In this document: positions 2,436-53,671 of the stretch, piece by piece | Layout: every line of letters starts with the position of its first letter | Numbering within the stretch: the first letter of the stretch is position 1 | Virus record (IMG/VR): IMGVR_UViG_3300044491_001751 | Coordinates: 1 to 53,938 of that record | Length of the DNA: 53,938 bases | Reading direction: 5' to 3' (one strand) | Source: a virus | Lineage: Duplodnaviria; Caudoviricetes | Notes under the pieces: generated by a model | What the model saw: the letters and a program-made list of their open reading frames with translations, nothing else | What the model was told of the DNA's origin: nothing | Database searches by the model: none | Made by a program: the position numbers and the translations under genes

Positions 2436-2640
2436 AGAGACAACCAAAAAGAGCCTGGCAAAGACTCTCAGCTGGGAAGCAGTACATCTAATTGGTATTG
2501 CGGGAGTAATTTACTTGTTTACAGGAGAGTGGGAGTACGCCACGTGGGGAGCTATTGTTTACATTTTCTGGGAAGCGCTTGCCTATTTCATCCATGAAAG
2601 AGTCTGGGCTAAATTTGGATGGTTTAGCGGAGGAAAGTAA
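2428..2640 (+). CDS. small membrane protein, DUF2061-like
   Basis: KSLAKTLSW...YFIHERVW pattern with two hydrophobic segments. Confidence 0.7.
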   Translation: MSKETTKKSLAKTLSWEAVHLIGIAGVIYLFTGEWEYATWGAIVYIFWEALAYFIHERVWAKFGWFSGGK

Positions 2641-3230
2641 TGACAGAAAATTTCCCTAATTTTTTTAAAGCAGTAGGTGCAGACGCTTTTTTTGCTAGAA
2701 ACTTAGCGTCCTATGCAGGCCAACCAATCCAATGTTTGCAGATAGGGGCGTATACGGGCGATGCAACGGATTGGCTCTTTAATAATATCCTTACGCATCC
2801 TGACGCTACTCTGACAGACGTAGATCCTTGGACTGGTTCAGACGAGCCAGTTCACCACCAGCTTGACTGGGGATCAGTAGAAGAAAAATATCTAGAAAGA
2901 CATCAAGATAAAATTGACTCAGGGAAACTAAAAATATTTAAAGGAACGAGCGACGAGTTCTTTGACTCAAAAGAAGGAAAAACAGGATTTCACTTTATTT
3001 ATATTGACGGAAACCACGAAGCAGCTCAAGTTTTAAAAGATGGCCTAAATGCAATCTACAGGACTGGAGTTGGAAGTATTGTGGCTTTTGATGATTATAG
3101 GTGGACTTCAGGAAAAGGCCTGTGGGCAGACCCAAAGCCAGCTATCGAAGCTATATGGTTTTGTCACAGCAACAAGTTTGAGCTTATAGATAAGGGAGAG
3201 CAAATTTGGCTAAAAAGGACCAGTCTTTAA
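2640..3230 (+). CDS. class I SAM-dependent methyltransferase (Methyltransf_24-like)
   Basis: LQIGAYTG, VDPW, FIYIDGNH, IVAFDDY motifs. Confidence 0.85.
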   Translation: MTENFPNFFKAVGADAFFARNLASYAGQPIQCLQIGAYTGDATDWLFNNILTHPDATLTDVDPWTGSDEPVHHQLDWGSVEEKYLERHQDKIDSGKLKIFKGTSDEFFDSKEGKTGFHFIYIDGNHEAAQVLKDGLNAIYRTGVGSIVAFDDYRWTSGKGLWADPKPAIEAIWFCHSNKFELIDKGEQIWLKRTSL

Positions 3231-4288
3231 AAGTTGCCGTCTACTGCATTGCTCTTAACGAGGAGCAGTTTGTCGAAAAATGGTACGAAAGTGCAAAAGA
3301 GGCAGACTACCTCTTAATTGCAGATACAGGTAGTACGGATGGTACCCGTGAAACTGCAATAAAGCTTGGAATCAACGTAATAGACGTAAAAGTGCGTCCT
3401 TGGCGTTTTGACGATGCCCGCAATGCATCACTCGTAGCCATCCCAGAAGACATTGACTACTGTATTGCCCTAGACATGGATGAAATCCTACTCCCTGGGT
3501 GGAAGCAAGAATTAGTAAACGCCCATAAGAATGGCTGGACACGTCCTAGGTATCAATACACATGGAATTGGCTAGACGAGGCGGAAACTGTACCAAGTCT
3601 TCAATATGGTGGAGATAAAATTCACACGCGTAAGGGGTACAGGTGGACACACCCTGTCCACGAGGTCCTAAGAGCCTATGGAGAGACAAAAGAGACTCAG
3701 GGATGGGTTGGGCTGGAGATCCACCACCACCCAGACAATACAAAGTCTCGTGGACAGTATTTTCCGCTGCTAAAGATGGCTGTAGACGAGCAGCCAGACG
3801 ACGACAGAAACGCTTATTATTACGCTAGAGAGCTTTTCTTTCACGGTCTATATGATCAGGCCATTGTCGAGTTTAAACGCCACCTGAGCCTCCCTAGAGC
3901 CACCTGGGCCCCAGAGAGAGCTGCCTCTATGAGGTATCTAGCAAAGATGATACCCGCTGAGCGAGAAAAATGGCTACTAGACGCAATTGCCCAAGCTCCA
4001 GGGCGTAGAGAGGCTTTAGTCGAATTGGCTCAGCACTACTATGAAGAGCAGAACTGGGCTAGATGCTTAGAATATGCCAAAAAGGCTCTAGACATCAAAG
4101 AAAAGCCACTTGACTTCCTTTGCGAAGCTTTTGCTTGGGGTTGCCTCCCGTGGGATTACGCAGCAATTTCGTCATATTATGTCGGAGACAGGAAAAACGC
4201 CCTTATTTACGGAACTAAGGCTTTGGAGCTAGAACCGCAAAATGAGCGGTTGCGAGAAAATATGGCGTATTACGCCAAAAATGATTAG
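3206..4288 (+). CDS. GT2 glycosyltransferase with C-terminal TPR repeats
   Basis: IALNEE, DTGSTDGT, FDDARN, LDMDE, VHE motifs; TPR-like helices in the C-terminal half. Confidence 0.9.
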   Translation: MAKKDQSLKVAVYCIALNEEQFVEKWYESAKEADYLLIADTGSTDGTRETAIKLGINVIDVKVRPWRFDDARNASLVAIPEDIDYCIALDMDEILLPGWKQELVNAHKNGWTRPRYQYTWNWLDEAETVPSLQYGGDKIHTRKGYRWTHPVHEVLRAYGETKETQGWVGLEIHHHPDNTKSRGQYFPLLKMAVDEQPDDDRNAYYYARELFFHGLYDQAIVEFKRHLSLPRATWAPERAASMRYLAKMIPAEREKWLLDAIAQAPGRREALVELAQHYYEEQNWARCLEYAKKALDIKEKPLDFLCEAFAWGCLPWDYAAISSYYVGDRKNALIYGTKALELEPQNERLRENMAYYAKND

Positions 4289-4737
4289 TTTTTGCTTTTT
4301 TGCGCGTGGTAAGCGTCTACAGCATTTGCACTAGTTCTACTCTGCCAAGTAAAGTGACAATCGTCACACCTAACTATGCGCATAGTAGCCCATCGGCCCC
4401 CGTCTGGACGATCGACAGTCGCTGTCTTTAGTTTGTCAGTTTTTGCTCGGCAATAGGGGCATAAAGGAAAACGCTTGTATCGCATTTCTTGCCCTTCCCA
4501 GTTGACAGATAGGGTATTTCTAATTTCTTGATAGTCCAATCCACCCCAAATGCCCCACAGCTGCTTGTTGTCTAGTGCCCATTGCGCACAATCTTTACGT
4601 ACAGGGCAGACACTGCAAAGTTTTTTTGCTTCGTATTGTTGAGCAGGCTTGTTTGCAAAAAAGTTGTCCATCTTGTCGGCGTGCTCTGGCTTGCCGCACT
4701 CTGCATCTTCGTGCCAGTCGGGACTATTAAGAAACAA
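4285..4737 (-). CDS. whiB: WhiB-family transcription factor with extra C-terminal zinc ribbon
   Basis: W....C...FF...AKKLCSVCPVRKDC...WGIWGG; extra CPYC...CDDC; probable TTG start at 4737 behind GGAGG (ORF track starts at 4761). Confidence 0.9.
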   Translation of the reverse strand: MFLNSPDWHEDAECGKPEHADKMDNFFANKPAQQYEAKKLCSVCPVRKDCAQWALDNKQLWGIWGGLDYQEIRNTLSVNWEGQEMRYKRFPLCPYCRAKTDKLKTATVDRPDGGRWATMRIVRCDDCHFTWQSRTSANAVDAYHAQKSKN

Positions 4738-5065
4738 ATGGAACCTCCACAAAAGTGGCATCCCAGTCGTAGAGCTCGTTGTCTAAGTCGCAGTAAACAG
4801 GAAATCTTTCATCGTCGTCTTCAAAGTAATATCCACCTTTGCTGGTCCAACCTAAGTCAATAAGCCGAAAGGCCTCGCCAAGCGAGTCTGCCACGCCTTC
4901 GAGGCGGAGCTGCTTAGCGAGGGCCTTCTTGGCAATCTGATCTTGATCAAGATAGACATGCTCTGTGAGGTAGAAAACTACGGAATCGGAGTGTATTTTT
5001 CTGGGAAAATCGTCGCCTTCCCATACAAGCCAGATTGGCTCTGCGATTGTCTTCTTACGTCTCAC
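4727..5065 (-). CDS. hypothetical protein
   Basis: 112-aa ORF overlapping whiB; GTG start 6 nt downstream of a TAAGTT -10-like box. Confidence 0.7.
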   Translation of the reverse strand: MRRKKTIAEPIWLVWEGDDFPRKIHSDSVVFYLTEHVYLDQDQIAKKALAKQLRLEGVADSLGEAFRLIDLGWTSKGGYYFEDDDERFPVYCDLDNELYDWDATFVEVPFVS

Positions 5066-5114: not shown

Positions 5115-5606
5115 TCAGTTTACTGGCCATACATAATCGTATGTGTCTGGCCTAGCACCAGTGTCTTCTGGCCAATTAAATTGCGAATACCACTCGTAGT
5201 CTTTGTTAAGAAGTGCCATACGGTGGCTAGACGCTATCTGACCAAAAAGCTCTTTATCTTTCATCCATGCAGGTAGGCGGTGGCTGTCTTTAGTGATCCG
5301 ACCAAGCTTAAGTGCTTGCAAGTATGTAAGGATGGTTTTTTGGCCAATAGTGGACTTATAGCCTCGCTTCTCCCACTCAAGTACCATCTTTAGTATGTAG
5401 AGAGTAAGAGCGCCTTCGTGGCCACGCCACATCTTAACGGCGGGGTGATTACGCCAGCCTTTAGCTGTGCGGTGGTTGCCCTGTGGGTCCAGTTCCACAA
5501 GGTTCATTAGGATTTGCCAGCCCTCTAGGGCTTGCTTGTTTAGTCGTGCTCGGTCTAGGACCTGCGCAGTATCCGCCGAGCCAAGTAGCGGTACAAATGT
5601 TTGCAT
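5115..5606 (-). CDS. pyrimidine-dimer DNA glycosylase / endonuclease V-like (MSMEG_6728-like)
   Basis: MQTF.P...LDRARLNKQALEGWQI, W.NHPAVKMWRG, SHR.ALL.K, YVWP family motifs. Confidence 0.85.
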   Translation of the reverse strand: MQTFVPLLGSADTAQVLDRARLNKQALEGWQILMNLVELDPQGNHRTAKGWRNHPAVKMWRGHEGALTLYILKMVLEWEKRGYKSTIGQKTILTYLQALKLGRITKDSHRLPAWMKDKELFGQIASSHRMALLNKDYEWYSQFNWPEDTGARPDTYDYVWPVN

Positions 5607-8871: not shown

Positions 8872-9639
8872 TTAACTCGCTTTCTTAGTTGATGTTTCAG
8901 CCTTGGACTCTCCAAAGACCATATCTAGCATGCGTTCGACCCCAAGGTCTCCCTGCTCTACTACTTTTCCTAGACGCCCTTGAACGCGCTCTCCAGCTTC
9001 GTACTCAGGGGTACGCTCGACATACATCTTGCGAACCTTGTACGGTGGCTGCATTGGATCTGGATTTGGTACCGTCTCCACTGTAATTGCGCCAAGAATG
9101 TCGTAGAAATACGGGGCCTGAATTGCTAGCTGGCCCTGGAGGTAAGGACGGTATACGCCATCCTGACCCTTACGTGCCATAGCAGTCAGTACCACAGCCT
9201 CAAGCGGCTGGGTAGGGTGCATCGTGAGGTCACGGAGATCACGAAGGAGTGCTCCCATGTGGCGAAGTAGTTCGCCCCACTGTTGCATCTTCATTTGCTC
9301 TGTGCCTGCGATGTTATCCATGCACTTGACCTGGAGCTCCGAGATGGAGTCAATGATCAAGGACTTGAAGTGGTGTTTCCCTGACTGAAGCCACTGGAAG
9401 GCCTTCATGACAACGTCATAGTCGTTTACTTTGACTACAACGGTGTCCCAAGTACCGTCTGCTAGTGGCGGTTCTTCAGTTAGGGGGTCCCAATACTTAA
9501 TGTTGATTGGTAGGAAGCGGTGGCCTCCCTCAACATCGAGCATTAGGCGTGGGTAAGGTGCCGTGACTGCGAAGCTGGACTTACCAACTTTGGACTCGCC
9601 ATAAACCATAATTGTTAAACTGCGTTCCACGTCTGACAT
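8872..9639 (-). CDS. AAA_24 / Sak4-like P-loop NTPase (recombination)
   Basis: Walker A YGESKVGKS, LDVEGG, Walker B IIDSISE. Confidence 0.85.
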   Translation of the reverse strand: MSDVERSLTIMVYGESKVGKSSFAVTAPYPRLMLDVEGGHRFLPINIKYWDPLTEEPPLADGTWDTVVVKVNDYDVVMKAFQWLQSGKHHFKSLIIDSISELQVKCMDNIAGTEQMKMQQWGELLRHMGALLRDLRDLTMHPTQPLEAVVLTAMARKGQDGVYRPYLQGQLAIQAPYFYDILGAITVETVPNPDPMQPPYKVRKMYVERTPEYEAGERVQGRLGKVVEQGDLGVERMLDMVFGESKAETSTKKAS

Positions 9640-9641
9640 AT

Positions 9642-10571
9642 TTACTCACTTCCCTTCTCTTCGATTCCGTAGTAACCGTATGGGTCGGATGACTCAAACG
9701 CATCGCTAAGTGCTGCTTCGGCGGCGCTTCCGTCGTCGAATAGCGGGCAAATAGCGAAGAATTGACACTTCCACTTGCAGTCGCGGCTTGGCTTCGGGTA
9801 AGCATGCTTAAAGTGGCTCTCGCCCTCGTCCAAAGCATCTCGGACATTTAGCATATCTGCAAGAGTGCCTTCTAGCTGCTCTAGAAATGCACGGAGTGTA
9901 AACCTATTATGGCGAACTTCAATCTGGTCATAGAACGGTGGCTTGGCGTAGGCACCGCGCTTAACCTTACGAAGCATCGTGAAGATAGCACCGTCAGTGC
10001 GTTCGCCTGTTTCGCCTTCCTGGGCTTCGTCTAAGAGCATGTAAGTTTTTACCTGCTCGTTCATGTGAGCCATAGCCCCAAAGTCTGCAAAAGAGCCGCC
10101 TACAGTTTTAAAGTCACGGATCATGCGAGCACCATCAATCTTACGACGAACACGCATGTCAATTTTTCCCTGTAGGACTACTCGACCATCCATCATCGGG
10201 CGTTCGAGAATCTCTTCAGTCGAAATCATCTCAAGCTCGGCATCAATGCCCTCTTGCTCTACCCACTCTAAGTAGCCCTCGAGCATTATACGACCAAGCT
10301 CTGCATCAGCCTCTAAGTTAGAGGTGTCGCGAAACTCTGCTTGCATCTTTTCTATGTCTTCCTTAACAAGGTCGGCATGAGCCTCTAGCAAGTCTTGTCC
10401 AGTTGAATAGTGCCTGTCAAGTGCTTCATGGATGCGAGAGCCTAAAGCTAGTGCTCCAGTAAACTCTGTTATCTTTGGCCTTAATCGGCGATAATAGGTT
10501 AGCCACCAACGTCTACGGCAATCTTTAAATGTTTGTATCTCAGAATTAGAAATTCTTACGGGAGCTGTCAT
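9642..10571 (-). CDS. PD-(D/E)XK Cas4/RecB-like exonuclease
   Basis: S.SEIQTFKDCRRRW, GSRIHEAL, GKID...DFKT, C-terminal CKWKCQFFAIC Fe-S cysteines. Confidence 0.9.
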   Translation of the reverse strand: MTAPVRISNSEIQTFKDCRRRWWLTYYRRLRPKITEFTGALALGSRIHEALDRHYSTGQDLLEAHADLVKEDIEKMQAEFRDTSNLEADAELGRIMLEGYLEWVEQEGIDAELEMISTEEILERPMMDGRVVLQGKIDMRVRRKIDGARMIRDFKTVGGSFADFGAMAHMNEQVKTYMLLDEAQEGETGERTDGAIFTMLRKVKRGAYAKPPFYDQIEVRHNRFTLRAFLEQLEGTLADMLNVRDALDEGESHFKHAYPKPSRDCKWKCQFFAICPLFDDGSAAEAALSDAFESSDPYGYYGIEEKGSE

Positions 10572-12403
10572 TATTTCTTTCCCTCTCTGAGAAGCTCTAG
10601 AAGCTTGGCCTTATCTTTTACAATCTGATCAAAGTTGTCAGCTTTTACGTCTAGTGCTTCGATTACGCGTTCTTCAATTGTTCCCTCAGTCACGTAGTCG
10701 GTAATGAGAATCGAATCGTGAATCTCAGAGCCAATGCGGTGAACGCGGTCCAGAGCCTGCTTGTAGTCAACAAGAGACCATGGCCTCTGAAGCATAACAA
10801 GTCGGCGTGCTGCTGTCAAGGTGACACCAACACCGCCAGCCTGGGCAGTGAACAAAATCCACTTTGTACGTCCAGACTGGAAATCATCAATAGCTTTCTG
10901 ACGCTCGTCAGAGTTTTGAGCACCAGTTATTAGCCCGTGAGGGATCTTTTCCTTGGTCATACGAGCACTTAGTAGCTCGATGAGCTGGCGAGACACTGCA
11001 CACACTGCAACGGAGTCTTCACCAAAGTCACCGCTCTTTATGTCATCCATTAGAGCGTCAACCTTACAAGAGGGGTCTGACAATAACATCTTCTCTTGAC
11101 CATCAACCAGTTCGATTTGACCGTAAGCACTAGCAAACTGAACTAAACGACCCGTCTGTGTTAGTGGATTTGGGGCCACTACCACTCCGCCATCAAGAAC
11201 ACCAGCGTCTAGTTCTCCGTTTTCAAACCGTTCTTCAGGAGTTGTCTCGAGCATTGCCATCATGTTTTCTAGCATCTGCTTGTAAGCCTTCTCTTGCTTA
11301 GCACCCATCTCGACGTCACGACGGTCATTGACAACTTCAGGAAGCCAAGGAAGTACTCTAGCTTTGAGCATGCGACGCATGCGTGGATGTATGCCAGCAT
11401 AGAACTCTGATTCCATTGCTGGCTTGAGTCCAAGGATCATAAGACCGCCAAATGCATTTAGCATGGTGTTCACAAAGCGGTCAATCCACTTAGTTTTACT
11501 TGGCCACTCTCTTTCGTCTAGCCAGTGCAAAATTGGCCACAAATCTACAACCGTATTTGCAATAGGAGTACCAGTCAGAGCAAATCTAAGATCAGCATCA
11601 CCAGAAGCAGCCCACAAGGCTCTGCTTTGCTTAGATTTAGGGTCTTTTGATCTGTGAATTTCGTCTGCAACTACCGACTTAAAATTAATGCTGTTTAGCT
11701 CGCGTTGATGAACCTCGCAGCGAGCTTTAGTGACTTTCGGGTCATGGCCTCCGCACTCGGTACAACGAGCAAGAGCTACTGACCCATAAGACTTAAGCCT
11801 AGAATGAGTTCGCAAGGACTCCCAGTTAATTATGTAGACCTGAGCTTCATGGTCGAAGGCCTTACGCCTTTGAGTAGCAGAGCCTTTGATTATCTGAACA
11901 TCAACACCAGGCCACCATTTATCAAACTCTCGCTCCCAGTTGCTCTTTAGAGTGTTAGGGCAGACAATCAAAGCAGGGAAAACCTGCTCTCCGCGGTCTT
12001 GTAGGCGTTTTAGAGCCCTTATAGCCTGTGCAGTCTTACCGAGACCTGGTTCGTCGGCTAGAAGCGCTCTACGGGCCGTAACGAGGAACTCTACGCCTGC
12101 TCTTTGGTGGGGGAATAGGTCAGCATCACCTTCTTCGGATGCCTCTACGTCTCTTAGAGCATTAGCGGGGTCAATTCTAGTAGCTTTCTCGTTAATTGCC
12201 CACTCGGCGAGCTTCGTACCGATCTCTAGATGTTCGCCAAAGGTCGAGCGAAGAGATAGGCAGCCAGTCCAAGAGACTGGAATACGCCAAACGTTTTTAT
12301 CTGAGTCCCATTTAGAGCCAGGAAGTGCCCTACATATCTCTTTTAGGCGCCACTCAGCGTTAATGATGATGTGATCACCGTCTAATTCTACAAAAACGCC
12401 CAA
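10571..12403 (-). CDS. SNF2-family DNA helicase
   Basis: LADEPGLGKT, DEIH, LTGTP, GGVGVTLT, QALDRVHRIG. Confidence 0.95.
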   Translation of the reverse strand: MGVFVELDGDHIIINAEWRLKEICRALPGSKWDSDKNVWRIPVSWTGCLSLRSTFGEHLEIGTKLAEWAINEKATRIDPANALRDVEASEEGDADLFPHQRAGVEFLVTARRALLADEPGLGKTAQAIRALKRLQDRGEQVFPALIVCPNTLKSNWEREFDKWWPGVDVQIIKGSATQRRKAFDHEAQVYIINWESLRTHSRLKSYGSVALARCTECGGHDPKVTKARCEVHQRELNSINFKSVVADEIHRSKDPKSKQSRALWAASGDADLRFALTGTPIANTVVDLWPILHWLDEREWPSKTKWIDRFVNTMLNAFGGLMILGLKPAMESEFYAGIHPRMRRMLKARVLPWLPEVVNDRRDVEMGAKQEKAYKQMLENMMAMLETTPEERFENGELDAGVLDGGVVVAPNPLTQTGRLVQFASAYGQIELVDGQEKMLLSDPSCKVDALMDDIKSGDFGEDSVAVCAVSRQLIELLSARMTKEKIPHGLITGAQNSDERQKAIDDFQSGRTKWILFTAQAGGVGVTLTAARRLVMLQRPWSLVDYKQALDRVHRIGSEIHDSILITDYVTEGTIEERVIEALDVKADNFDQIVKDKAKLLELLREGKK

Positions 12404-43149: not shown

Positions 43150-44892
43150 CTATGCCTCTGGTTCCGCTAGTGGTGGGGTGGCTTCAGCAGGTGTAATTGG
43201 AGCTTCTTCAGAGTCCTCTACCTGCTCTGGTTCTCCCTGTAACAGTTGATCAATTTCTGGAGGAATCGGGGCTCCGCCCTCTTGCATTGTCTGCTGACGC
43301 ATTTCTCCCATAACTTCTGGTGCAACGGAGCGGAGCAGTGCTTCGGTGAGCTCTGGAGTAACCATACCCTTTTGCATGACCATACGAAGTACGTACTCCT
43401 TTGGATCTGGAGCATCTGCTTCTGAGAATCCGTGAGCACGACGCCATGCGTCGTAGGAAACAGCAATCTTGTCGAATCCTGCATCTGCATCTGCAGCACG
43501 GTCGTTGCGAGTGGCAACCTGGGATGGGTCAAACCAAATGCAGACATCCTTTACTTCTTGCTCGGAGTATCCGTTAGCAATCAGGTATGGACGCAGATAG
43601 ACAACAGTAAGCGCGTCAACTATAAGCAGCATCAGTGGTTCGATGTGTGCCTTGTAAAGAGCTTCGTCAATTTGCAGCGCGTTAGAGTACTTAACGTTTG
43701 CAAGACCAGTGACTACATCCTTAGGGACATCTAGTCCCTGCATGATGCGCTCTAGTACGCGGTCTGCACGCTGTGCCAAGGCGGGGTCGAAAGAACGCTC
43801 AAACTTGAACTGCTTGATGCGGTCGCCAAGCTCCGCAGGTCCGCGAATGATAAGTGGTACAACGGCAGATGCAGAATCCTCGTCCTTAATAGGCGTGGTC
43901 ATTGCATCAATTAGCTGGTCTTCAAACTCGTCCGCTGCTTCCTCAGCTGTGTAAGTTTCGTTGTAATTTCCATCTTCATCGTAAGGATAATCAGGGTCAG
44001 GACCAGCGGCAACAGAAAGACCGTCAGGAAGATATAGAGCGCCAGCATTGAGGCGAGAGCGAGCAGTCGCACGGAATGTCCTATTCAAAAGTAGAAGCTC
44101 GGCGCAGAGGTCTAGTAGACCGCGCAAGCTTGAGTCAGCCTCTTGGGTGTAGCGAGGGTGTGAACGCCAGATGCGTCCAACGAATGAAGACTGAGGGAGG
44201 CGAATAGCATCCTTGTTGCCCTGAGACATTACAGACGCAGTTCCTCCTCCAATATCGCGACGAGGATTAATTATGTAGTTGCCTTTAGAGTCAACCTGTA
44301 GCTCATCAATCGAGCGAACGTCCCAGGTCTCGGGAAGTCCAGAGCCAATACGTTCTGGAAGCTGAACTAGATAGCACTCTCCTGTAACTTGCAAGTTAAG
44401 AGCTGCATCTTTAAGGAGGCCTGCTTGTCCGCCATATGCAGAGCTAAGACGATCAAGTGCACGCTGAGCGGCAGCCGCTAGCTTGACGTCAACCCTCTCT
44501 ACACCCTCGATGGGGGATGGTGCGTCTGCTGGATTACTAATAGCAGCTGCATAGAGACGAATACGAGATACAACAGACGCAACTAGGTTAAAAGCGTACT
44601 TGATTTCACCAATTGAGTCGTAGTACTCCCAGGCTTCTGTCTGCCAAGCGGTGGATGCTGACTGTCGACGAGCTTTGAATAGCTCTGCCTCGGTTTTGTC
44701 GTCTAGTTTGACCTGGGCAGCGGCCGCGGTTAGACCTCTAGGTTGATTAAAAGCTGCTGGTTCGGCATAAACAACGCCAAAAGAGTCAACAGACACTCCA
44801 GGAGCTACGCGAGTGGCAGTTCTAGGTGCTGAAGCACGCACACCCCTACGAGATTCGCTTGGTTTCTCGTTTTCTTTCTTGAAAATAGCCAA
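43150..44892 (-). CDS. portal protein
   Basis: After terminase; WQTEAWEYYDSIGEIKY, SRIRLYAA, IWRSHPR...ADS, RSRLNAG.L.LP actinophage portal motifs. Confidence 0.88.
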   Translation of the reverse strand: MAIFKKENEKPSESRRGVRASAPRTATRVAPGVSVDSFGVVYAEPAAFNQPRGLTAAAAQVKLDDKTEAELFKARRQSASTAWQTEAWEYYDSIGEIKYAFNLVASVVSRIRLYAAAISNPADAPSPIEGVERVDVKLAAAAQRALDRLSSAYGGQAGLLKDAALNLQVTGECYLVQLPERIGSGLPETWDVRSIDELQVDSKGNYIINPRRDIGGGTASVMSQGNKDAIRLPQSSFVGRIWRSHPRYTQEADSSLRGLLDLCAELLLLNRTFRATARSRLNAGALYLPDGLSVAAGPDPDYPYDEDGNYNETYTAEEAADEFEDQLIDAMTTPIKDEDSASAVVPLIIRGPAELGDRIKQFKFERSFDPALAQRADRVLERIMQGLDVPKDVVTGLANVKYSNALQIDEALYKAHIEPLMLLIVDALTVVYLRPYLIANGYSEQEVKDVCIWFDPSQVATRNDRAADADAGFDKIAVSYDAWRRAHGFSEADAPDPKEYVLRMVMQKGMVTPELTEALLRSVAPEVMGEMRQQTMQEGGAPIPPEIDQLLQGEPEQVEDSEEAPITPAEATPPLAEPEA

Positions 44893-45201: not shown

Positions 45202-45566
45202 TATTCATCCTTAATCGAGGCCAAAGTTCTGTAAGGATTCCAACCTCGTAGTCGAGAACCACATCCGCAGCCTCGGTCTTTCCTAAATGCTAGCATTTTT
45301 CCCGACGAAGTGACAACATAAGAGTCTTCACCAGCGTCTTTCGACGGTTCAAAGGTCGTATATGTCTCGCGAAATACGACTTGCGGCCCTTCTGGCCCGT
45401 CTTTTGCCACCATAATGGTCTCATCTGTAACAATAACCCTTGTAACGTCTAAATATTTTGTGTCTTTAGTTGGTGGCTGACTGCTTAGAGAGGTTACATC
45501 GTCTGTAAACCCTGCAGGTACAGCCACTAAATTGCATGGAAACCTGTCCATGATTATCTTTGACAC
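45201..45566 (-). CDS. hypothetical protein
   Basis: C-terminal GCGCGSRLRGWNP motif; coupled between terminase and DUF1360 gene. Confidence 0.75.
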   Translation of the reverse strand: MSKIIMDRFPCNLVAVPAGFTDDVTSLSSQPPTKDTKYLDVTRVIVTDETIMVAKDGPEGPQVVFRETYTTFEPSKDAGEDSYVVTSSGKMLAFRKDRGCGCGSRLRGWNPYRTLASIKDE

Positions 45567-46987
45567 TATCTTACCCTAAAAACTCTTCCCAGACGGGAAG
45601 TGTTAGGAGATGTAACTCCCATTTTTCTGTCGGCGTAGCTTTTTGCTCTAATTTTTCCACCGCTAAAGCCTGGAGGTGGTTTGATTAGCAGTGCAGTGAG
45701 AGCGTGAACTAGTGCATCGACGCGGTCTGGGGATTTTCCTTCGCCTGGAATCCAAGAATACATCTGAGATTCGAGGTCTTGGTGATATCCAACGTGGTGG
45801 ACGCGCCCCTGTTCGTATGCAAGAACTGTAGGCTCTGCTCGAAGCTGCTTTCCGTACTTGGAGTGAACTTCTAGAACCTTGATCGTCGGGTCTATCGAGA
45901 GAATAGCGTTTTTAACAAGTGCGCCTCCTTGATTAACTTCGGCAACAACGGGACAACCCCACTTACGAGCCATCTCCACAACCTTACGGGCCCAGGTGTC
46001 TGGGGAACCGTGAATTGAAGCGTCTTCAAGAACCCACGCGTTTCTCTTATAGAGGTCATGTTCGGCGCTTGACGCACATACCACAATTCCACACTCATCA
46101 CGGGGATTCTCAGCAACCGAAGGGTCCACGCCGATAACACGTAGCGGAGTAGAAAGCGGATAAACCGCTTCTCTAGAGGACTCAACCATTTCTTCAGTCC
46201 AGAGCGCACCTTCGACATCATCGAGCATCTCTCCATAAAGCTCTTGGCGGGCAAGTGTTGTTCCTTCGTATACACCCATAATAGTGTCTAGATAAGCCTG
46301 CGATAGGTTGCCCGCGTTGTCCATCGTAGAGCCTTTTGTGACAACAACTTTAGAGACCCCTGGCCTATCTGTTCTGGACTCTTCAATAAGTTTGTAAAGC
46401 AGCGGAACTCGCTTAGGAGTGGTCGTAACTAAAATCTGAGGGTTTTTACCAAGACGAGTACCAACGCGGAGGTTGTCGAACGCGGTCATACCAGCAGCGT
46501 CTGGAGTCTGACGCCATGCAGCCACCTCATCGCCCCATGCGTGAGTGAACTGCGGACCACGAAGCGAGTCAGGTTCGTCAGCAGTAAAGAGCGTTGCGGT
46601 GTTTCCGTTGGGCCAAGTTAGACGTCGCTTGGATGGCTCGTAGTGCGGCTTCTCTGAGGGAGGCGAGACCGAGATAATTCCAGATTCACCTTCAACGATA
46701 ACGTCACGAACGTCGGCAGCGGTACGGGCGGCGAGAGCAAATCGGCGTTGACCATCTTTTGTGTACTTTGCTTGTTCGCGTACCCACTCGGACGCAAGAC
46801 GGGTTTTACCAAAACCACGACCAGCGAGAACTAGCCAGACGTTCCAGTCGCCTTCAGGAGCTTTCTGCTCGGGACGAGCCCAGACGGACCAGTCCCAGAC
46901 TAGAGACTCGGGGTTCATACCCGCTAGGGCTTCGAGGCGTTCTTCTTCAGGCAGTAACGCGAGCTGCTCCATGATGCTTTTACCCAT
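45566..46987 (-). CDS. terL: terminase large subunit
   Basis: Walker A AGRGFGKT, LRGPQF.HAWGDE, VTTTP, nuclease VIGVDP and SPDRVDALVHAL. Confidence 0.97.
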   Translation of the reverse strand: MGKSIMEQLALLPEEERLEALAGMNPESLVWDWSVWARPEQKAPEGDWNVWLVLAGRGFGKTRLASEWVREQAKYTKDGQRRFALAARTAADVRDVIVEGESGIISVSPPSEKPHYEPSKRRLTWPNGNTATLFTADEPDSLRGPQFTHAWGDEVAAWRQTPDAAGMTAFDNLRVGTRLGKNPQILVTTTPKRVPLLYKLIEESRTDRPGVSKVVVTKGSTMDNAGNLSQAYLDTIMGVYEGTTLARQELYGEMLDDVEGALWTEEMVESSREAVYPLSTPLRVIGVDPSVAENPRDECGIVVCASSAEHDLYKRNAWVLEDASIHGSPDTWARKVVEMARKWGCPVVAEVNQGGALVKNAILSIDPTIKVLEVHSKYGKQLRAEPTVLAYEQGRVHHVGYHQDLESQMYSWIPGEGKSPDRVDALVHALTALLIKPPPGFSGGKIRAKSYADRKMGVTSPNTSRLGRVFRVR

Positions 46988-46993
46988 AGGGTA

Positions 46994-47545
46994 CTATTCT
47001 AGCTCAGACATGCGGCGTAGAGCTGAGACTGGTATTGAATACGTTGCTTTTCCGCCTTCTTCTCCTGTTATGTAGTCTGAGATCATAACCTCGTATGGGT
47101 AGCACCATCCGAGTGCTTCATAGGGTGGGGTCTGATATCCGTTGTCTTTGCTTCTTCTAATTTTAGTTTCTGGGCCACCAACTAAAAGAACATAAGGAGC
47201 TCTATCGTTATCGATGCTACTACTGAGTCTTAGGGTCGGAGTGACTGAATTGCCTCTTGTAAATTTATAGCGGACTTCCCAGTCTCCGACATCTGGCTCT
47301 TGTTTAAAGGTGTTCACGCTAGGGATAAAGTTTTCGTGGGTCCCCAGATACATTTTTGACCAGGCAATTTCGGCTCCAGCAGTGACTGCATGTTGGTGAG
47401 TTTCCCAGATGGCACCTTCGTCGTATCGTCGATTTGCTTCTGGATTACCAAAGTACGGGAACTGTCTAGCAAATCCAATACTCATTGCTAACGCCTCTTC
47501 TCTAGGGGTGAGGCTTACCTTCCATTTGTTATTTTCTTCGCTCAT
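46994..47545 (-). CDS. hypothetical protein, possible PD-(D/E)XK-like fold
   Basis: GAEIAW...EPDVGDWEVRY; probable start ATG 47545 (ORF-track start at 47581 abuts the tmRNA 3' end). Confidence 0.6.
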   Translation of the reverse strand: MSEENNKWKVSLTPREEALAMSIGFARQFPYFGNPEANRRYDEGAIWETHQHAVTAGAEIAWSKMYLGTHENFIPSVNTFKQEPDVGDWEVRYKFTRGNSVTPTLRLSSSIDNDRAPYVLLVGGPETKIRRSKDNGYQTPPYEALGWCYPYEVMISDYITGEEGGKATYSIPVSALRRMSELE

Positions 47546-47582
47546 GGGGAGCATGGTATTAGCTACTAGCCAATTTGTCAAG

Positions 47583-47882
47583 TGGAGCTGGGGGGATTCG
47601 AACCCCCGTCCGATAAGCCATCGTCTGTTCTTCTACGTGCGTAGGCTCTACCAGCCACGGTACTGCGGTTTGCGTTTGCGGTCGCCACCGTAATGCTGTG
47701 TTCTATTTATTTAAACCCTGTGGCGATTAGTTAGAACTACTTCTACCAGAGGGGCTCAGCTAAGCAGCTAGAGCGAATGCAGACTGTGAGTTTGCGTTTA
47801 TTTTTGTTGCCCGATTCAAGAGGTACAGGCTTCTCTGCACGCTTCACCAGATTCAAACATACCGTCGAAACCAGTCAGCCCC
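47583..47882 (-). ncRNA. ssrA: tmRNA, tag peptide (A)ANSQSAFALAA
   Basis: 5' GGGGCTGACTGGTTTCGAC; 3' GACGGGGGTTCGAATCCCCCCAGCTCCA with G3:U wobble; resume context AATAAAC-GCA; tag ORF 47760-47795. Confidence 0.95.
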
Positions 47883-47886
47883 ATAT

Positions 47887-48054
47887 TTAGTTGTCGTTTG
47901 TTACTACAGTTCCTACTTGCTCTAGGTCGGTAACTAGAGCGGCTTCTTCTGCAGTTGCAGTTCCGTTGATAACTTTAGTAGCTAGAGCCAAAGCAGTGTC
48001 AGCGTCGTCTGCAGTTACTTGATACCGCGCACCTGAGGTGATTATGTATTCCAT
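47887..48054 (-). CDS. small hypothetical protein, 55 aa, probably leaderless
   Basis: MEYIITSGARYQVTADDAD...; TGCTATAAT box 6 nt upstream of the ATG at 48054 (the longer ORF-track start lies inside the tRNA). Confidence 0.7.
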   Translation of the reverse strand: MEYIITSGARYQVTADDADTALALATKVINGTATAEEAALVTDLEQVGTVVTNDN

Positions 48055-48074
48055 ACAAAAATTATAGCACCTTG

Positions 48075-48146
48075 CTCTCCCCCGTGGATTCGAACCACGA
48101 ACCATTCGATTAACAGTCGAACGCTCTGCCGTTGAGCTAGAGGAGA
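48075..48146 (-). tRNA. tRNA-Asn(GTT)
   Basis: TCTCCTC/GGGGAGA acceptor, D-arm TAGCTCAACGGCAGAGC, anticodon arm TTCGA-CTGTTAA-TCGAA, GGTTCGAATCC T-arm; CCA not encoded. Confidence 0.95.
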
Positions 48147-48153
48147 TTGATGG

Positions 48154-48288
48154 CTACTTGTTAGTAACCAATCGACGCTTCGCAGCATCGAAAATCTTTG
48201 GACGCTTCTTTCTAGCTTTACCGTTCTTGCGGTCTGCTCCTGAAGTGTCTTTTACAGGAGCTGGAGCTCCACCCTTACCTTTTGCCAT
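48154..48288 (-). CDS. small highly basic protein, 44 aa (not in ORF track)
   Basis: AAGGAGAGG RBS, TGTTATACT box upstream; MAKGKGGAPAPVKDTSGADRKNGKARKKRPKIFDAAKRRLVTNK*. Confidence 0.75.
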   Translation of the reverse strand: MAKGKGGAPAPVKDTSGADRKNGKARKKRPKIFDAAKRRLVTNK

Positions 48289-48313
48289 ACCTCTCCTTAG
48301 ATCAGTAAAAGTA

Positions 48314-48343
48314 TAACACCCCCGTATTTCTACGAGGGTGTTA
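48314..48343 (-). terminator. hairpin terminating the upstream ncRNA
   Basis: TAACACCC-C-CGTA-TTTC-TACG-A-GGGTGTTA; followed on the - strand by TACTTTT. Confidence 0.6.
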
Positions 48344-48348
48344 AGAGT

Positions 48349-48500
48349 GAGTAGGTGGAATGCGTTTTACCACCAAGGCCTGGTTGCTTCGGTCTCTAAA
48401 GCCCGCTACTAAGCCTACCTACAGTTGGGTTACACCCAGACGTTACTCCCTGCAGTGCCTTACCACCCCGTGCAACTTTGAGGTTGTTCAGCCATACTCC
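48349..48500 (-). ncRNA. structured ncRNA, possibly manA-motif-like
   Basis: ORF-free; closing stem GAGTA/TACTC; hairpins CAAC/GTTG, CTGCAG/CTGTAG enclosing TGGGT/ACCCA, GGCTT/AGGCC, GGTGG/CCACC; own promoter and terminator. Confidence 0.6.
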
Positions 48501-48529
48501 AGCTTTTCCGTCGAATCGCTGTTGGTAAT

Positions 48530-48557
48530 AGATTAGCACCTATTCAGTGCCTGTCAA
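48530..48557 (-). promoter_or_regulatory. sigma70/SigA-type promoter for ncRNA
   Basis: TTGACA (48552-48557), 16-nt spacer ending TGC, TAATCT (48530-48535). Confidence 0.7.
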
Positions 48558-48582
48558 GTTATGTTCGCTCAGAGCGAATTTA

Positions 48583-50769
48583 TTATACGTCGAACCTGTC
48601 GTTGTTCATGACCTTCTCCCATGCGGCGATAAAGTCAATGACAAATTGCTGCTGGCCGTCGTCTGAAGCGTAAACTTCAGCGTAGGCGCGGAGAATCGAG
48701 TTAGACGCAAACACCATGTCTGCGCGAGATGCAATCCACTTGACTTCCTGAGTCTTGCGGTCACGTCCCTGATACAGGTTGTCTAGAACTGGACTCCACT
48801 CGGTGTCCATGTCCAAGATGTTCCTAAAGAAGCATGGCTTGAGGACACCTGGCTGAGTTACCAAGTCGGATACAGCGGAGTTTGCGTGACGCACTCCAAG
48901 AGCACGTAGACCGCCGTACAGAGCAACCATCTCTGGAGGGGTTAGGCCTAGGAGAGCTGCCTTGTCGATTAGTAGACGGTCTAGCGAGTCCGCGTACTTC
49001 TTGTGGCTCCAGTTGATAAACGCATCTGCAACTGGGTAGAGGTGGTTGAATGAATCAACGTCTGTCTGCTCCTGAGTTGCATCACCACGTCCGCCTATGA
49101 AGCCAACAACAACTGGAACTCCGCCGTCGTTTGCAGCCTCTTCAACAGCATAAGAACCAGCGAAGACAATCAGGTCAGCCAAGGACATTCCAGACTCTGG
49201 CTGGATCTCCTTTAGCTTCTCGATAGTTGCAGCAACATCAGAGTTGACTGGCCAGCTCTTCTGTGGCTCTAGGGCGATGCGTGCACCATTCGCTCCACCG
49301 CGCTTGTCAGTGTTGCGGTAGGTTGATGCAGACGCCCATGCAGTGCGGATCAAATCAGTGGCTGTTAGTCCAGAGTTGTCCAAAGCAATGCGAGTCATGT
49401 GCTTCTGAAGGATGGTCGGGTGTGAGCTCGAAGGAACTGGGTCCTGCCACAGTAGAACCTCTGACGGAACTTCTGGGCCATGGTAGCGAGCACGTGGCCC
49501 CATGTCGCGGTGGGTCAGCTTGAACCACGCACGAGCGAAGACGTCAGTGAAGTAGTCGAAGTCCTCTAGGAACTTGCGGCAGATGCGGTCATACTCCTCG
49601 TCTCCGAAACGGAGTGCTAGGTCAGTAGTGAGCATCTTTGGAATTACGTCATCTCCGCCGTGGGCGTGAGGTGCCATGTCTCCTGGCTCAATGTTGATTG
49701 GACGCCACTGCTTTGCACCAGCAGGTGACTCTTCCATCTCCCACTCGTACTTATAGATGAGGCGTAGGTAGTCGTTGTCCCAGCGGGTTGGGTGAGGAGT
49801 CCAAGTAACTTCTAGGCCAGAGGAGATAGTGTCGCCTCCGTGTCCAGCTCCCTGAGAGTTGTTCCAACCAAGACCAACGTCAGCTAGGTTGTCATTAGCC
49901 TCTGGCTCTGGACCAACCTGTGCAGCATCGCCAGCACCGTGAGTCTTACCAAACGCGTGTCCACCAGCGATAAGAGCAACAGTCTCCTCGTCGTTCATGG
50001 CCATGCGACCAAAGGTGGTGCGGATGTCAGCGGCAGCAGCCTTAAAGTCTGGGTTGCCATCTGGACCCTCTGGGTTTACGTAGATGAGACCCATCTGCAC
50101 AGCAGCTAGTGGGTCCTCTAGAGTCTCGGCGTCGCGTGACTCGTCGTAACGCTTGTTAGCTAGCCACTCAGTCTCGTTACCCCAGTAGGTGTTGTCTGGC
50201 TCCCAGACGTCTGCACGTCCGCCAGCAAAACCGAAGGTCGGGAATCCCATGTCTTCGAGAGCAACGTTACCTGCAAGAATCATCAGGTCTGCCCAAGAGA
50301 GCTTGCGACCATACTTCTTCTTGACTGGCCACAGTAGACGACGAGCTTTATCTAGGTTTACGTTGTCTGGCCAAGAGTTAAGCGGAGCGAAACGCTGTAG
50401 GCCTTCGCCTCCACCGCCACGTCCATCTGAAACGCGGTAGGTTCCAGCAGCGTGCCATGCCATACGGATAAAGAATGGACCGTAGTGTCCGTAGTCTGCT
50501 GGCCACCAGCTAACAGAAGTCTTCATGACTTCTACAATTTCGTCTTTTACCTCGGAAAGATCTAGTTTGCCAAACTCTTCAACATAGTCGAAGCCCTCTT
50601 CGTAGGGGTCGCTCTTAGGGTTGCCCTTCAGAAGCGGGTCAACGCTAATTTGGTTTGGCCACCAGTCATTGTTGGTTGTGCCCATCTCGGCACTAGCACC
50701 GCCAGCAGTTCCCATTGGCATAGGGCACTTTGCTTCAGCGGAGCTGTCGTTTACGTCGTAGTTACTCAC
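48583..50769 (-). CDS. katG: catalase-peroxidase
   Basis: [23 protein letters not shown] (distal R/W/H), [64 protein letters not shown]; 728 aa, uninterrupted. Confidence 0.98.
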
Positions 50770-50995
50770 TAATTCCTTCTCCTTGGTTCAGTGTTGCACA
50801 GACAATCCTTGCGATACGGTCTGCGAATATCATGTCTTCTTGTTCTCTAGAAAGAAACGCGGCTCCTGGGGGAGGCTCTGGAGTGTACTCCTTTGCGTTG
50901 CCCGAAAGGATATCGTTTACTCTCGCAGCTACAAGCGTACCAAACTTTTCTTGCATGAGCTGCTTGTTATACATGTTGATTAGATCTTGAGTCAT
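50762..50995 (-). CDS. hypothetical protein
   Basis: 77 aa; its stop overlaps the katG start. Confidence 0.7.
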
Positions 50996-50997
50996 TT

Positions 50998-51579
50998 CTA
51001 TCCTTTAGTAGCTCTATTCTCCTTGCGCACTGGGTTGTAGACCTTGGATGTTGCAGTTATTGGCTGCTTGTAGCCGTAGCGCACAAGTCGAAAGCGTAGA
51101 GCACCGTGAGTAACGCCGAGCCTCTTGGCTAGACGGTACAGGGTAACTCCCTCAACCGTGTGTGCGTGATTAAGAAGCGCGGTGTACTCTTCTGCCTCTT
51201 CGCGGTACTTAGTTCCGTTAGAACGGACCTGCTGGGCGTAGGGCTGCAACTCCAGTAGACGCTTGAGCGTGTCTGGGTGCGGCTCGATGTACTGCGGCTT
51301 CGGTCGCTCTGGCTTTACTGGAGGCTCTGGGATCTCGATATCGAGACTGTAAGAGAACTCTTCAGCCAGCTCGTCAATTGCTTTTGCAATCTGTCGGACG
51401 CGCTCTCTGGTCAGACCAGAGGCGTTAGCAACGGCTTCGTAGGTCCAATTGTTGTTTACCAGTTCTTTAATAAGAGAGTCCCGCTGAGCACCCGTCACGG
51501 AGGTGAAAGCTATCACGATTTCTTTTGGCAGTCTTTGATTTTTCTTGATGTAGTTTTTTTCGTCACTCATGGTTGTCAT
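50998..51579 (-). CDS. double helix-turn-helix DNA-binding protein
   Basis: WTYEAVANASGLTRERVRQI (sigma region 4-like HTH) and VTLYRLAKRLGVTHGALRFRL. Confidence 0.85.
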   Translation of the reverse strand: MTTMSDEKNYIKKNQRLPKEIVIAFTSVTGAQRDSLIKELVNNNWTYEAVANASGLTRERVRQIAKAIDELAEEFSYSLDIEIPEPPVKPERPKPQYIEPHPDTLKRLLELQPYAQQVRSNGTKYREEAEEYTALLNHAHTVEGVTLYRLAKRLGVTHGALRFRLVRYGYKQPITATSKVYNPVRKENRATKG

Positions 51580-51581
51580 TT

Positions 51582-51875
51582 CTATCTCTCTCTTGTAAAT
51601 CTATTCTTTGGTATTCGATTGTTAACTTCAGTGATAGTTACTCGGTAGTGGTCCAGTGATGCCATATCTTGTATGTGTGAAGATATTGCTACATCGGTAA
51701 CATGAACCATTGACTCCAAGAGGGTTACCATCTTCTGAACTTCTTGAACGTCACTGTCTAGTGGGCATTGAATCTCTACCTCGCAGTCAAGCATGTCAAA
51801 GACGCCGCTACCCGCAACTGCATCTCTAAATTCGTTGTAATCAGATACCTTCATTGTTCTTGAATAGCTTGACAC
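51582..51875 (-). CDS. hypothetical protein
   Basis: 97-aa ORF, AAAGGA RBS, coupled to the upstream gene. Confidence 0.7.
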   Translation of the reverse strand: MSSYSRTMKVSDYNEFRDAVAGSGVFDMLDCEVEIQCPLDSDVQEVQKMVTLLESMVHVTDVAISSHIQDMASLDHYRVTITEVNNRIPKNRFTRER

Positions 51876-52391: not shown

Positions 52392-53069
52392 CTACCAGCG
52401 CAAATATACAACTCTAGAGTTTTCGCTCTCGGCGAACGAGTCGACAGTCTGTAGGTTAGTGTCCTTCTCTGGGTTGGACGCGTGAATCATTAGACCTCCA
52501 CCAATGTAGACGCCGATATGGAAGTAAGACGAAGCACCTGACTTCTGGAAGGCTACGAGGTCTCCAGCAATAGGCGCGTCTACGATTTGCGAACGGATGT
52601 CGCGAACCTGTGCGGTTGCGGAGTGGATTACGTCTTGGAACCCGCGGTGATTGAGATACCACTGGGTAAGCCCAGAGCAGTCCCAGATAAGCGGAGTGTT
52701 ACCGAATCCATATGGAGTCCCAATATGGGACCACAATGCTGTAATAGCGACGTCTACCGCAATCTGCTGGTTGTAGTAAACGTCTGCTTCAGCTTCCTCG
52801 GCTTCCTTTATAAGAAACGCCTTTGCCTCGATGGTCTCAGCGCGAAGCTTTTCCATCTCCATCTGGAACTCTTGCTGCATAGCTAGTGAAGCGAGTGGAC
52901 CTTCGTTGGCATATCTGCTGTAGAAGGACTCGTCCTGCACGTACACAATTTGCGTAGGCGTGTACTCAAACGGCTCTGGGTCAGCCACTGCAACTTGTGC
53001 AGAGCCAACCGCCGAAAGAGTAACTAGCAGTACTACTGCCTCTCCCAATTTCTTCATCGTGTAACTCAC
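52392..53069 (-). CDS. secreted NlpC/P60 peptidoglycan endopeptidase
   Basis: N-terminal signal peptide; GTPYGFG...WDCSGL, GDLVAF, HIGVYIGGG.MIHA (Cys-His-His). Confidence 0.92.
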   Translation of the reverse strand: MSYTMKKLGEAVVLLVTLSAVGSAQVAVADPEPFEYTPTQIVYVQDESFYSRYANEGPLASLAMQQEFQMEMEKLRAETIEAKAFLIKEAEEAEADVYYNQQIAVDVAITALWSHIGTPYGFGNTPLIWDCSGLTQWYLNHRGFQDVIHSATAQVRDIRSQIVDAPIAGDLVAFQKSGASSYFHIGVYIGGGLMIHASNPEKDTNLQTVDSFAESENSRVVYLRW

Positions 53070-53152: not shown

Positions 53153-53671
53153 CTAAAGCATGATTCGCTTATACATTGCCCTGTAGGTAACTCCCGCTGC
53201 CTCTGCCAGCTCTTTGATAGGCACGTTGTTGGCGTGCAGTTTCTTGCATAGTTGTGTTAGACGCTCGTTAGCAACCGCGGCTGCAGAAGTAGATGACATG
53301 CGGGAGCGATAAGTACGAGCGAGTGGTGCTAGATAGTGGATCTGTTGCAGGTCATCTGGGTTGATGCCTGGAGACTCTGGACGGACCTTTTGGTATCCGT
53401 TCTCGTCTGTCTTTAGTTTTGGTTTTGGAATAGGGGCGTCTGCGAAAAGCAAGCAAGCGTCACTGTCCCAGTTATCTTCGGCGCGTAGTACCCAGCTGCG
53501 TACGGTGGAGCGAGGGCGTTTGCGAGGGAATGATTGCCCGATGGCATCGAGCGGCCAACCTTGGTCAAAGAGCATCTTTACTCGATATATGAGGACCTCC
53601 TTGGGGAGAGTATTGAGATACTCAACTTCTCCTGGCGGGAGCTGCTGTCCTCTGGCGGCTCGTCTAGACAT
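53153..53671 (-). CDS. double helix-turn-helix DNA-binding protein (paralog of 50998..51579)
   Basis: GWPLDAIG...RSTVRSW and VPIKELAEAAGVTYRAMYKRI; leaderless GGTAGAAT-N6-ATG. Confidence 0.8.
   Translation of the reverse strand: MSRRAARGQQLPPGEVEYLNTLPKEVLIYRVKMLFDQGWPLDAIGQSFPRKRPRSTVRSWVLRAEDNWDSDACLLFADAPIPKPKLKTDENGYQKVRPESPGINPDDLQQIHYLAPLARTYRSRMSSTSAAAVANERLTQLCKKLHANNVPIKELAEAAGVTYRAMYKRIML

Follow-up and report, generated by a model that had tools for sequence, protein, structure and literature searches.

An intact catalase-peroxidase gene in a variable, terminase-adjacent slot of phages that probably infect aquatic Actinobacteria

Stress from hydrogen peroxide (H2O2) is widespread in surface waters exposed to sunlight, and the capacity to remove this compound has been lost from many streamlined plankton. 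Here we describe an intact katG gene, encoding a predicted bifunctional catalase-peroxidase of 728 amino acids, on the viral record IMGVR_UViG_3300044491_001751; the window, i.e. the whole stretch of DNA analysed, is the entire IMG/VR record of 53,938 bp, which is linear and estimated by CheckV to represent approximately 33% of a genome. The concept of viral katG as an auxiliary gene that detoxifies peroxide has been published before, and what is added here is a lineage-level anatomy and a corrected host hypothesis. In Lake Mendota, katG ranks with the most abundant auxiliary genes carried by viruses; it persisted there for 20 years and was interpreted as serving H2O2 decomposition, with ahbD for heme synthesis also mentioned (Zhou et al., bioRxiv 10.1101/2024.02.06.579183); in the Elbe estuary, viral katG genes and transcripts are more abundant at low salinity (PMC13390420). 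These accounts share with the present locus a catalase-peroxidase on viral contigs and its reading as an H2O2-removing enzyme, and differ in the host, which is Planktophila/Nanopelagicales there whereas the window leans towards Rhodoluna-type Microbacteriaceae. Gene neighbourhood, KatG phylogeny and alternative modules were not found in the available text of these papers, supplements being outside the scope. The slot anatomy, the pairing of KatG with heme oxygenase, the alternative module of peroxiredoxin, thioredoxin reductase and thioredoxin (Prx-TrxR-Trx), the KatG locus beside ribonucleotide reductase (RNR) and the Rhodoluna affinity set out below were likewise not found in published accounts, again with supplements outside the search, and 'not found' is not to be equated with 'not published'.

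Cyanophages carry the heme oxygenase gene ho1. A peroxiredoxin has also been described as a cyanophage auxiliary gene (PMC12801897), and peroxide-removing and heme-degrading genes are accessory cargo both in those phages and in the ones described here; the cyanophages differ in host phylum and phage lineage, and in the present phages heme oxygenase accompanies either KatG or Prx-TrxR-Trx in one exchangeable slot adjacent to the gene for the terminase large subunit (TerL). By TerL, the closest annotated phages are Actinomycetia phage DSL-LC01 (OQ999401; 74%), a lake metagenome-assembled actinophage with WhiB genes, and Microbacterium phages of ~190 kb (61–65%); these differ from the window in that tblastn found no KatG in them, and DSL-LC01 has only small hypothetical genes upstream of its terminase. 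PHROG contains no KatG family, and a tblastn search of INPHARED with KatG returned seven records, all at 51–55% identity: three small unannotated fragments, two large records deposited as a Salmonella strain and a pair of ~220-kb records named 'Acinetobacter phage'. These appear to be bacterial DNA filed as phage and were rejected as relatives of the window gene. A sequence-only reading of the window, which preceded this analysis, had considered a large heme catalase to be unusual phage cargo; this holds for isolated phages (no PHROG family, seven INPHARED matches at ~53%) but not for metagenomic viruses, in which katG is abundant (Zhou et al.).

The window katG (48583..50769, minus strand) has a GTG start. 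Its product matches the peroxidase family PF00141 in two stretches, NCBIfam TIGR00198 with 987.5 bits (cut-off 770.25; profile positions 8–713 of 716) and NCBIfam NF011635 with 1068.3 bits over the full length (cut-off 981). The best solved relative is the 728-amino-acid chain of 5l05 from Burkholderia pseudomallei, which aligned end to end with 870 bits; Mycobacterium tuberculosis 2cca aligned with 822 bits. The window KatG has the same two-domain build as these cellular enzymes, to which it is ~54% identical, and the same catalytic motifs; it differs in being phage-encoded, in having at most 67% identity to sampled cellular KatGs and in its placement within a clade made up of viral KatGs and one Rhodoluna-type group. 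All motifs quoted in the sequence-only reading, RMAWH and GGHAFGKTH among them, are present in the translation and match 5l05 column for column. In an alignment of 25 sequences (the window, 18 other viral KatGs and six cellular KatGs), residues R102, W105 and H106, which form the same motif in 5l05, Y230 (IYVNPEG), M256 (RMAMNDEET), H271, W323 (LEVTWT), D383 (TTDLALRF) and R421 (LTHRDMGP) were each kept in all 25. We take R102, W105 and H106 to be the distal triad, W105, Y230 and M256 to form the Met-Tyr-Trp cross-link, H271, W323 and D383 to be the proximal His, Trp and Asp, and R421 to be the mobile Arg. By its full-length family match, two-domain build and catalytic residues the gene is classed as KatG (catalase-peroxidase HPI), and heme b binding together with catalase and peroxidase activity are predicted for its product.

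Phage katG is under purifying selection: the ratio of nonsynonymous to synonymous substitution rates (dN/dS; Nei-Gojobori) was 0.068–0.175 in 10 phage KatG pairs, by comparison with 0.055–0.089 in three Rhodoluna pairs. None of the 20 full-length phage-neighbourhood KatGs of our first tree (19 IMG/VR loci and locus L048; loci are designated by L numbers) contained a stop codon.

The gene is part of a genuine viral genome and is flanked by viral genes on either side. A protein scan of IMG/VR identified 37 distinct KatG loci (56–98% identity), 23 of which have the gene order of the window, with TerL at 81–99% and the portal protein at 75–91% identity. The conserved order, all on the minus strand of the window, runs from a 172-amino-acid open reading frame (ORF; 53153..53671) through an NlpC/P60 peptidase-domain protein that also matches tail-protein PHROGs (52392..53069), a 97-amino-acid ORF (51582..51875), a 193-amino-acid helix-turn-helix (HTH) DNA-binding protein (50998..51579; Sigma70_r4/HTH_3, phrog_686; 60–79% over the full length in relatives) and a small ORF of 77 amino acids (50762..50995) to KatG; it continues through a variable spacer to TerL (45566..46987; Terminase_6N/6C), two small ORFs and the portal protein (43150..44892; phrog_776, 358 bits). 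This bears out every detail of the layout given in the sequence-only reading, in which katG overlaps a small ORF downstream of an HTH gene and is followed by RNA genes and terminase, and the survey of viral databases for katG near terminase that it had proposed is answered by the 23 syntenic loci. Two complete records with direct terminal repeats (CheckV 100%; 154,192 and 153,711 bp) carry one KatG each. Among the best 80 KatG loci from genome collections, the window neighbourhood was found only in L048, a contig of a metagenome-assembled genome (MAG), which identifies that contig as phage; the other 79 had none of the phage genes of the window.

For the probable source run, a 6762-bp Logan contig covers positions 46500–49308 (TerL, tmRNA, tRNA and the 3' part of katG) and a 3965-bp Logan contig covers 49817–52000 (the 5' part of katG, the small ORF and the HTH gene), both with 0 differences, so that both katG borders are bridged; contigs of this run break only inside katG (49308–49817), where strain variants collide. 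The earlier proposal that katG does not belong to a host flank is upheld. In an independent salt-marsh run (X2), contigs join position 46987 to 47581 and 46987 to 48073, and these joints are population variants of the region that lack a 195-amino-acid ORF, or that ORF and the tmRNA. Parts of the stretch had no cover in runs X2, X19 and X20 (47052–47419 among others). The sequencing runs holding the stretch were mostly from estuary and salt-marsh samples.

The interval between the HTH and TerL genes behaves as a cargo slot. Besides katG, the window slot contains, on the same strand, a tRNA-Asn (GTT; 48074..48146; ARAGORN, Rfam 65.2 bits), a phage tmRNA with the tag ANSQSAFALAA (47582..47882; ARAGORN, Rfam 128.8 bits) and the 195-amino-acid ORF (46994..47581), which is variably present, variants without it being seen in reads. 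We surveyed the content of this interval, between the HTH homologue and TerL, in the best 80 of 477 IMG/VR TerL relatives (81–99% TerL identity). KatG was present in the slot of 25 relatives and absent from 37 in which both HTH and TerL were found (gaps of 24–4562 bp); the remaining 18 were too short upstream. On a 63-row TerL tree, no fewer than 11 changes are required for KatG presence, and supported branches force 6 of these; the mean for shuffled states is 19.7. Phages with near-identical TerL differ in slot KatG. The slot is hypervariable and KatG is a labile, accessory part of its cargo, the small ORF being conserved backbone: homologues of the 77-amino-acid ORF (46–60%) also precede the cargo in relatives, KatG-less slots included, and neither a Pfam nor a PHROG family matched this ORF, to which no function is assigned. 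A natural experiment is provided by near-identical phages that have KatG, a thiol-peroxidase module or neither of these at one site, and it could reveal whether peroxide removal limits phage production. A tmRNA was also seen in relatives L007, L014 and L126–128 (tags ANSRSAFALAA, ANSQSAFALAA and GTQSAFALAA) but is absent from most other slots.

The content of the slot in relatives was informative as to what KatG may do. Of 29 distinct contigs with KatG in the slot, the window counted, 14 have a heme oxygenase gene (PF01126, ~200 amino acids) after KatG, at a distance of 40–161 bp in 13 contigs and 1075 bp in one (for example L007:4810-5403, L139:8979-9632, L025:6367-6969 and L141:5745-6545). 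Heme oxygenase is absent from the window, from the flanks of all 79 cellular KatG loci and from all five candidate host genomes. Three KatG-less slots (L142, L144 and L154) instead hold an AhpC/TSA peroxiredoxin, a TrxB-like pyridine-nucleotide disulphide oxidoreductase and a thioredoxin (L142:6981-9421, L154:2081-3947), in L142 and L144 together with heme oxygenase. Since a heme-dependent KatG and a heme-free thiol system alternate at one site, these slots provide the strongest indirect support for a role in peroxide removal. The L184 slot has a TrxB-like gene, and heme oxygenase occurs without KatG in slots L140, L174, L175, L178 and L180. Other cargo includes a carbamoyltransferase, collagen-like proteins and, in L163 (996-4931), an ORF of 1311 amino acids containing an ADP-ribosyltransferase exoenzyme domain (PF03496, 110 bits). 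No ferrochelatase (PF00762) was detected in three of the five candidate host genomes, namely two KatG-bearing Rhodoluna-type MAGs and one complete Nanopelagicaceae chromosome; the two remaining genomes, both small and from Microbacteriaceae, have one. Heme auxotrophy in part of the candidate hosts is hinted at by this pattern, with MAG incompleteness as an alternative. The pairing of KatG with heme oxygenase, in phages whose candidate hosts have no heme oxygenase and in part seemingly no ferrochelatase, would connect infection with the way streamlined bacteria manage heme.

KatG also occurs at a second phage locus. In 11 of the viral loci without the synteny of the window (14 in all), a class Ib-type RNR pair is situated a few kb upstream of KatG, comprising a large subunit of 705 amino acids (RNR_N; 74–100% identical among loci) and a small subunit of 316 amino acids (in L035, RNR genes at 1952-5030 and KatG at 10001-12196; the others are L008-L013, L020, L021, L032 and L033). 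A 128-kb contig (L035 and L161) has a TerL 85% identical to that of the window and a nearly empty slot, with 384 bp from HTH to TerL; with KatG beside RNR and a window-like TerL on the same contig, one phage lineage places KatG at two sites. Terminase_6N was detected in one of five non-syntenic viral records searched, the other four being fragments that are 27–67% complete. In the remaining three of the 14 loci (L029, L030 and L038) the KatG is 56% identical to that of the window, is placed on the cellular side of the tree and has subtilase and HNH endonuclease genes beside it.

Phylogenetic placement indicates that the phage katG and the KatG of a low-GC lineage of Rhodoluna type (Luna-1, Microbacteriaceae) have a common origin. 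In a 113-row KatG tree, 31 viral KatGs formed one group (92 in the Shimodaira-Hasegawa-like approximate likelihood ratio test) whose sister was a set of eight Rhodoluna-type Microbacteriaceae KatGs, with a joint support of 100 and with Nanopelagicaceae across the main split. In a careful tree of 60 rows, the clade of phage and Rhodoluna-type (Rhodoluna-A) KatGs was supported at 100/100 and phage monophyly at 77/90, so that this tree is in effect a trichotomy of two phage subclades and Rhodoluna-A. A single origin of the phage KatGs was dropped with this fall in support from 92 to 77/90; given the weak monophyly, we claim a shared origin with Rhodoluna-A and no direction of transfer. The eight Rhodoluna-A katG loci have a conserved chromosomal context of DoxX, TetR-like, Na/Ca exchanger, GH16 and aldehyde dehydrogenase genes, in which no tRNA and no phage genes were found, and this conserved context mildly favours transfer from host to phage. 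KatG was detected in 56 of 301 sampled Microbacteriaceae genomes (best identity 67%) and 186 of 301 sampled Nanopelagicales genomes (best 62%); identity within the phage KatG clade is 64–99%, a range that no sampled cellular KatG approaches.

Taken as a whole, our explanation is that katG is a functional accessory, or auxiliary metabolic, gene in the HTH-to-TerL slot of ~150-kb phages of aquatic Actinobacteria, that it serves to remove peroxide during infection, and that a Rhodoluna-type lineage is both connected with its origin and the likely host; we give this a probability of about 70%. Translation of katG would probably be coupled to that of the 77-amino-acid ORF: the ORF ends ...ATT AGT GAG TAA and katG opens GTG AGT AAC..., an 8-nt overlap, and AAGGAGAAGGA, as read from the DNA, sits just upstream of the katG GTG, an arrangement of the kind expected for translational coupling. 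One RNA-library contig (50686-51001) bridges the katG start and the entire 77-amino-acid ORF, with DNA carry-over possible. Transcription would probably stop just downstream of katG at a terminator-like hairpin of 13 pairs followed by a T-run (48314..48343, minus strand; consensus match), ~240 nt past the katG stop. The apoprotein may then load host heme b in the infected cell and clear H2O2, which would allow replication and virion assembly to be completed in sunlit, peroxide-rich surface water; following the common origin with Rhodoluna-type KatG, the gene would have been repeatedly gained, lost and moved within the phage lineage. Peroxide detoxification during infection, as first suggested from the sequence, is in our view the best reading of the gene and is strengthened by the Prx-TrxR-Trx module that sister phages have at the same position. 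No Fur-, PerR- or OxyR-type peroxide regulator was found beside katG, the upstream HTH protein matching Sigma70_r4 and HTH_3 only. The window and its relatives provide a clean full-length katG on complete phage genomes, suited to expression and assay.

Several observations weigh against this explanation. Slot KatG is dispensed with by 37 of the 62 informative relatives, and katG-carrying viruses are low in abundance relative to their hosts (Zhou et al.); together these imply that any benefit is conditional. A review lists viral katG as 'not validated' (PMC12713726), and no enzyme assay of a viral KatG is on record. GC content at third codon positions is 0.553 in katG by comparison with 0.462 in TerL, 0.418 in the portal gene and ~0.38 in Rhodoluna-A katG. 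Contigs from two metatranscriptome libraries span katG at 90–97% identity, but strand, level and timing cannot be read from them and DNA carry-over is possible. Scans of the window gave four promoter-like sites against 5.3 expected from shuffles and 11 terminator-like sites against 7.2 expected, i.e. no enrichment of either. As to the host, the TrxB signal described below belongs to the sister phage L142 and not to the window; for the tRNA-Asn, a 91% match over 55 nt was obtained in two Nanopelagicaceae genomes and none in three genomes of Rhodoluna type; the tmRNA tag ANSQSAFALAA is unlike the Rhodoluna tags AKSKSTDFALAA and AKSSRTDFALAA and the Nanopelagicaceae tag ADNSRSDFALAA; and katG viruses have been assigned to Planktophila/Nanopelagicales (Zhou et al.). 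The tmRNA was set aside as a host marker, its tag fitting neither group and its only blastn matches to Rhodoluna being short and at the 3' end.

Beyond this explanation, we consider it possible, though tentatively and with the odds against it, that the interval from the HTH and small ORF to TerL is a dedicated, fast-exchanging 'peroxide and heme' cassette site in which KatG and Prx-TrxR-Trx, each with or without heme oxygenase, are interchangeable answers to a single selective pressure, with the RNR-side locus as a second KatG site and with a long-lived phage KatG clade that trades with Luna-1 hosts and may have been the donor to Rhodoluna-A. If so, phages would be a reservoir of a 'leaky' function prone to loss in streamlined plankton.

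The sequence-only reading had linked the gene to acI Actinobacteria, on the premise that these need catalase in culture because of their sensitivity to peroxide. That premise is outdated: it is heme and riboflavin in the catalase preparation that were shown to account for its effect on acI cultures, acI being heme auxotrophs, although H2O2 tolerance continues to go with the presence of katG (Kim et al., bioRxiv 10.1101/2021.01.11.426183). A host among acI (Nanopelagicales), in which the phage would complement an absent or weak host KatG, nevertheless retains perhaps the best claim of the alternatives, although we regard it as unlikely. It would account for the tRNA-Asn match, the one window feature pointing to Nanopelagicaceae, and for the published assignment of katG viruses to Planktophila/Nanopelagicales; in addition, 115 of the 301 sampled Nanopelagicales had no KatG match, and the KatG of 'group A' acI has been described as low-functioning (PMC7527133). 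The remaining evidence points elsewhere. The KatG phylogeny against freshwater Actinobacteria, a check suggested at the outset, joined the phage KatGs to the Rhodoluna-type clade at 100/100 and not to acI, with Nanopelagicaceae across the main split, and the best KatG identity is 67% to Rhodoluna-type but only 62% to Nanopelagicales genomes. The TrxB-like protein of sister phage L142 is 70–76% identical to those of six Microbacteriaceae genomes of 1.2–1.7 Mb; its identity does not exceed 68% in other Microbacteriaceae or 64% in Nanopelagicales. Tetranucleotide frequencies of the window without katG correlate at r = 0.74 with Rhodoluna-A loci, by comparison with 0.39–0.48 for Nanopelagicaceae and 0.24 for higher-GC Rhodoluna-type loci, and the GC content is 47.9% for the window and 46.9% for Rhodoluna-A loci. 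The predominantly estuarine and salt-marsh origin of the runs bearing the stretch also argues against acI. Two more host signals are the proximity of TerL to DSL-LC01 and the Microbacterium phages and the WhiB gene of the window, which speaks for an actinobacterial host. On balance we lean, by a modest margin over even odds, towards a Luna-1-type host; such a host in place of acI is a testable proposal and bears on how virus-host abundance series are read.

A different possibility is that KatG serves some phage-specific chemistry: that it shields radical and metal enzymes such as the phage RNR, blunts an abortive host response based on reactive oxygen species, or belongs with heme oxygenase to a heme and iron module. 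The NrdE/NrdF-type genes a few kb upstream of KatG in 11 of 14 non-syntenic loci would fit this, as would the heme oxygenase that follows KatG in 14 of 29 contigs, accompanies the Prx module too and was found in none of the five candidate hosts; ferrochelatase was not detected in three of those five genomes, and heme auxotrophy is widespread among streamlined plankton (Kim et al.). However, the window lacks heme oxygenase, nothing in it matches the RNR large subunit (NrdE) of L035, gene adjacency does not show a functional link, and the Prx-TrxR-Trx alternative is heme-free, which leaves peroxide removal as the common denominator. We therefore hold phage-specific chemistry to be improbable, and more so than an acI host.

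That katG might be a decaying or neutral passenger without function for the phage is suggested by its frequent loss, given the 37 of 62 informative relatives without it, but is very hard to reconcile with dN/dS values of 0.07–0.18, with the absence of stop codons from 20 full-length KatGs and with the retention of all catalytic motifs; we give it very little credence. Weaker still is an assembly chimera or host flank, in which a bacterial chromosomal katG was joined to phage DNA: the source-run contigs do fragment within katG (49308-49817) and katG is richer in GC than the neighbouring phage genes, but this is rejected by the same neighbourhood in 23 other IMG/VR contigs, one MAG contig and complete terminal-repeat genomes, by contigs crossing both katG junctions with 0 differences, and by identities of 92–99% to phage relatives as against at most 67% to sampled cellular KatGs.

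Elsewhere in the window, a WhiB-domain protein of 158 amino acids (4285..4761, minus strand; domain match) is a marker of an actinobacterial host, and genes for an AAA_24 protein (8872-9639) and a PD-(D/E)XK nuclease (9642-10571) lie near it. A pyrimidine-dimer DNA glycosylase (PF03013), which acts in the repair of UV damage, is encoded at 5115-5606 on the minus strand, and its presence along with KatG is consistent with a phage life in sunlit surface water.

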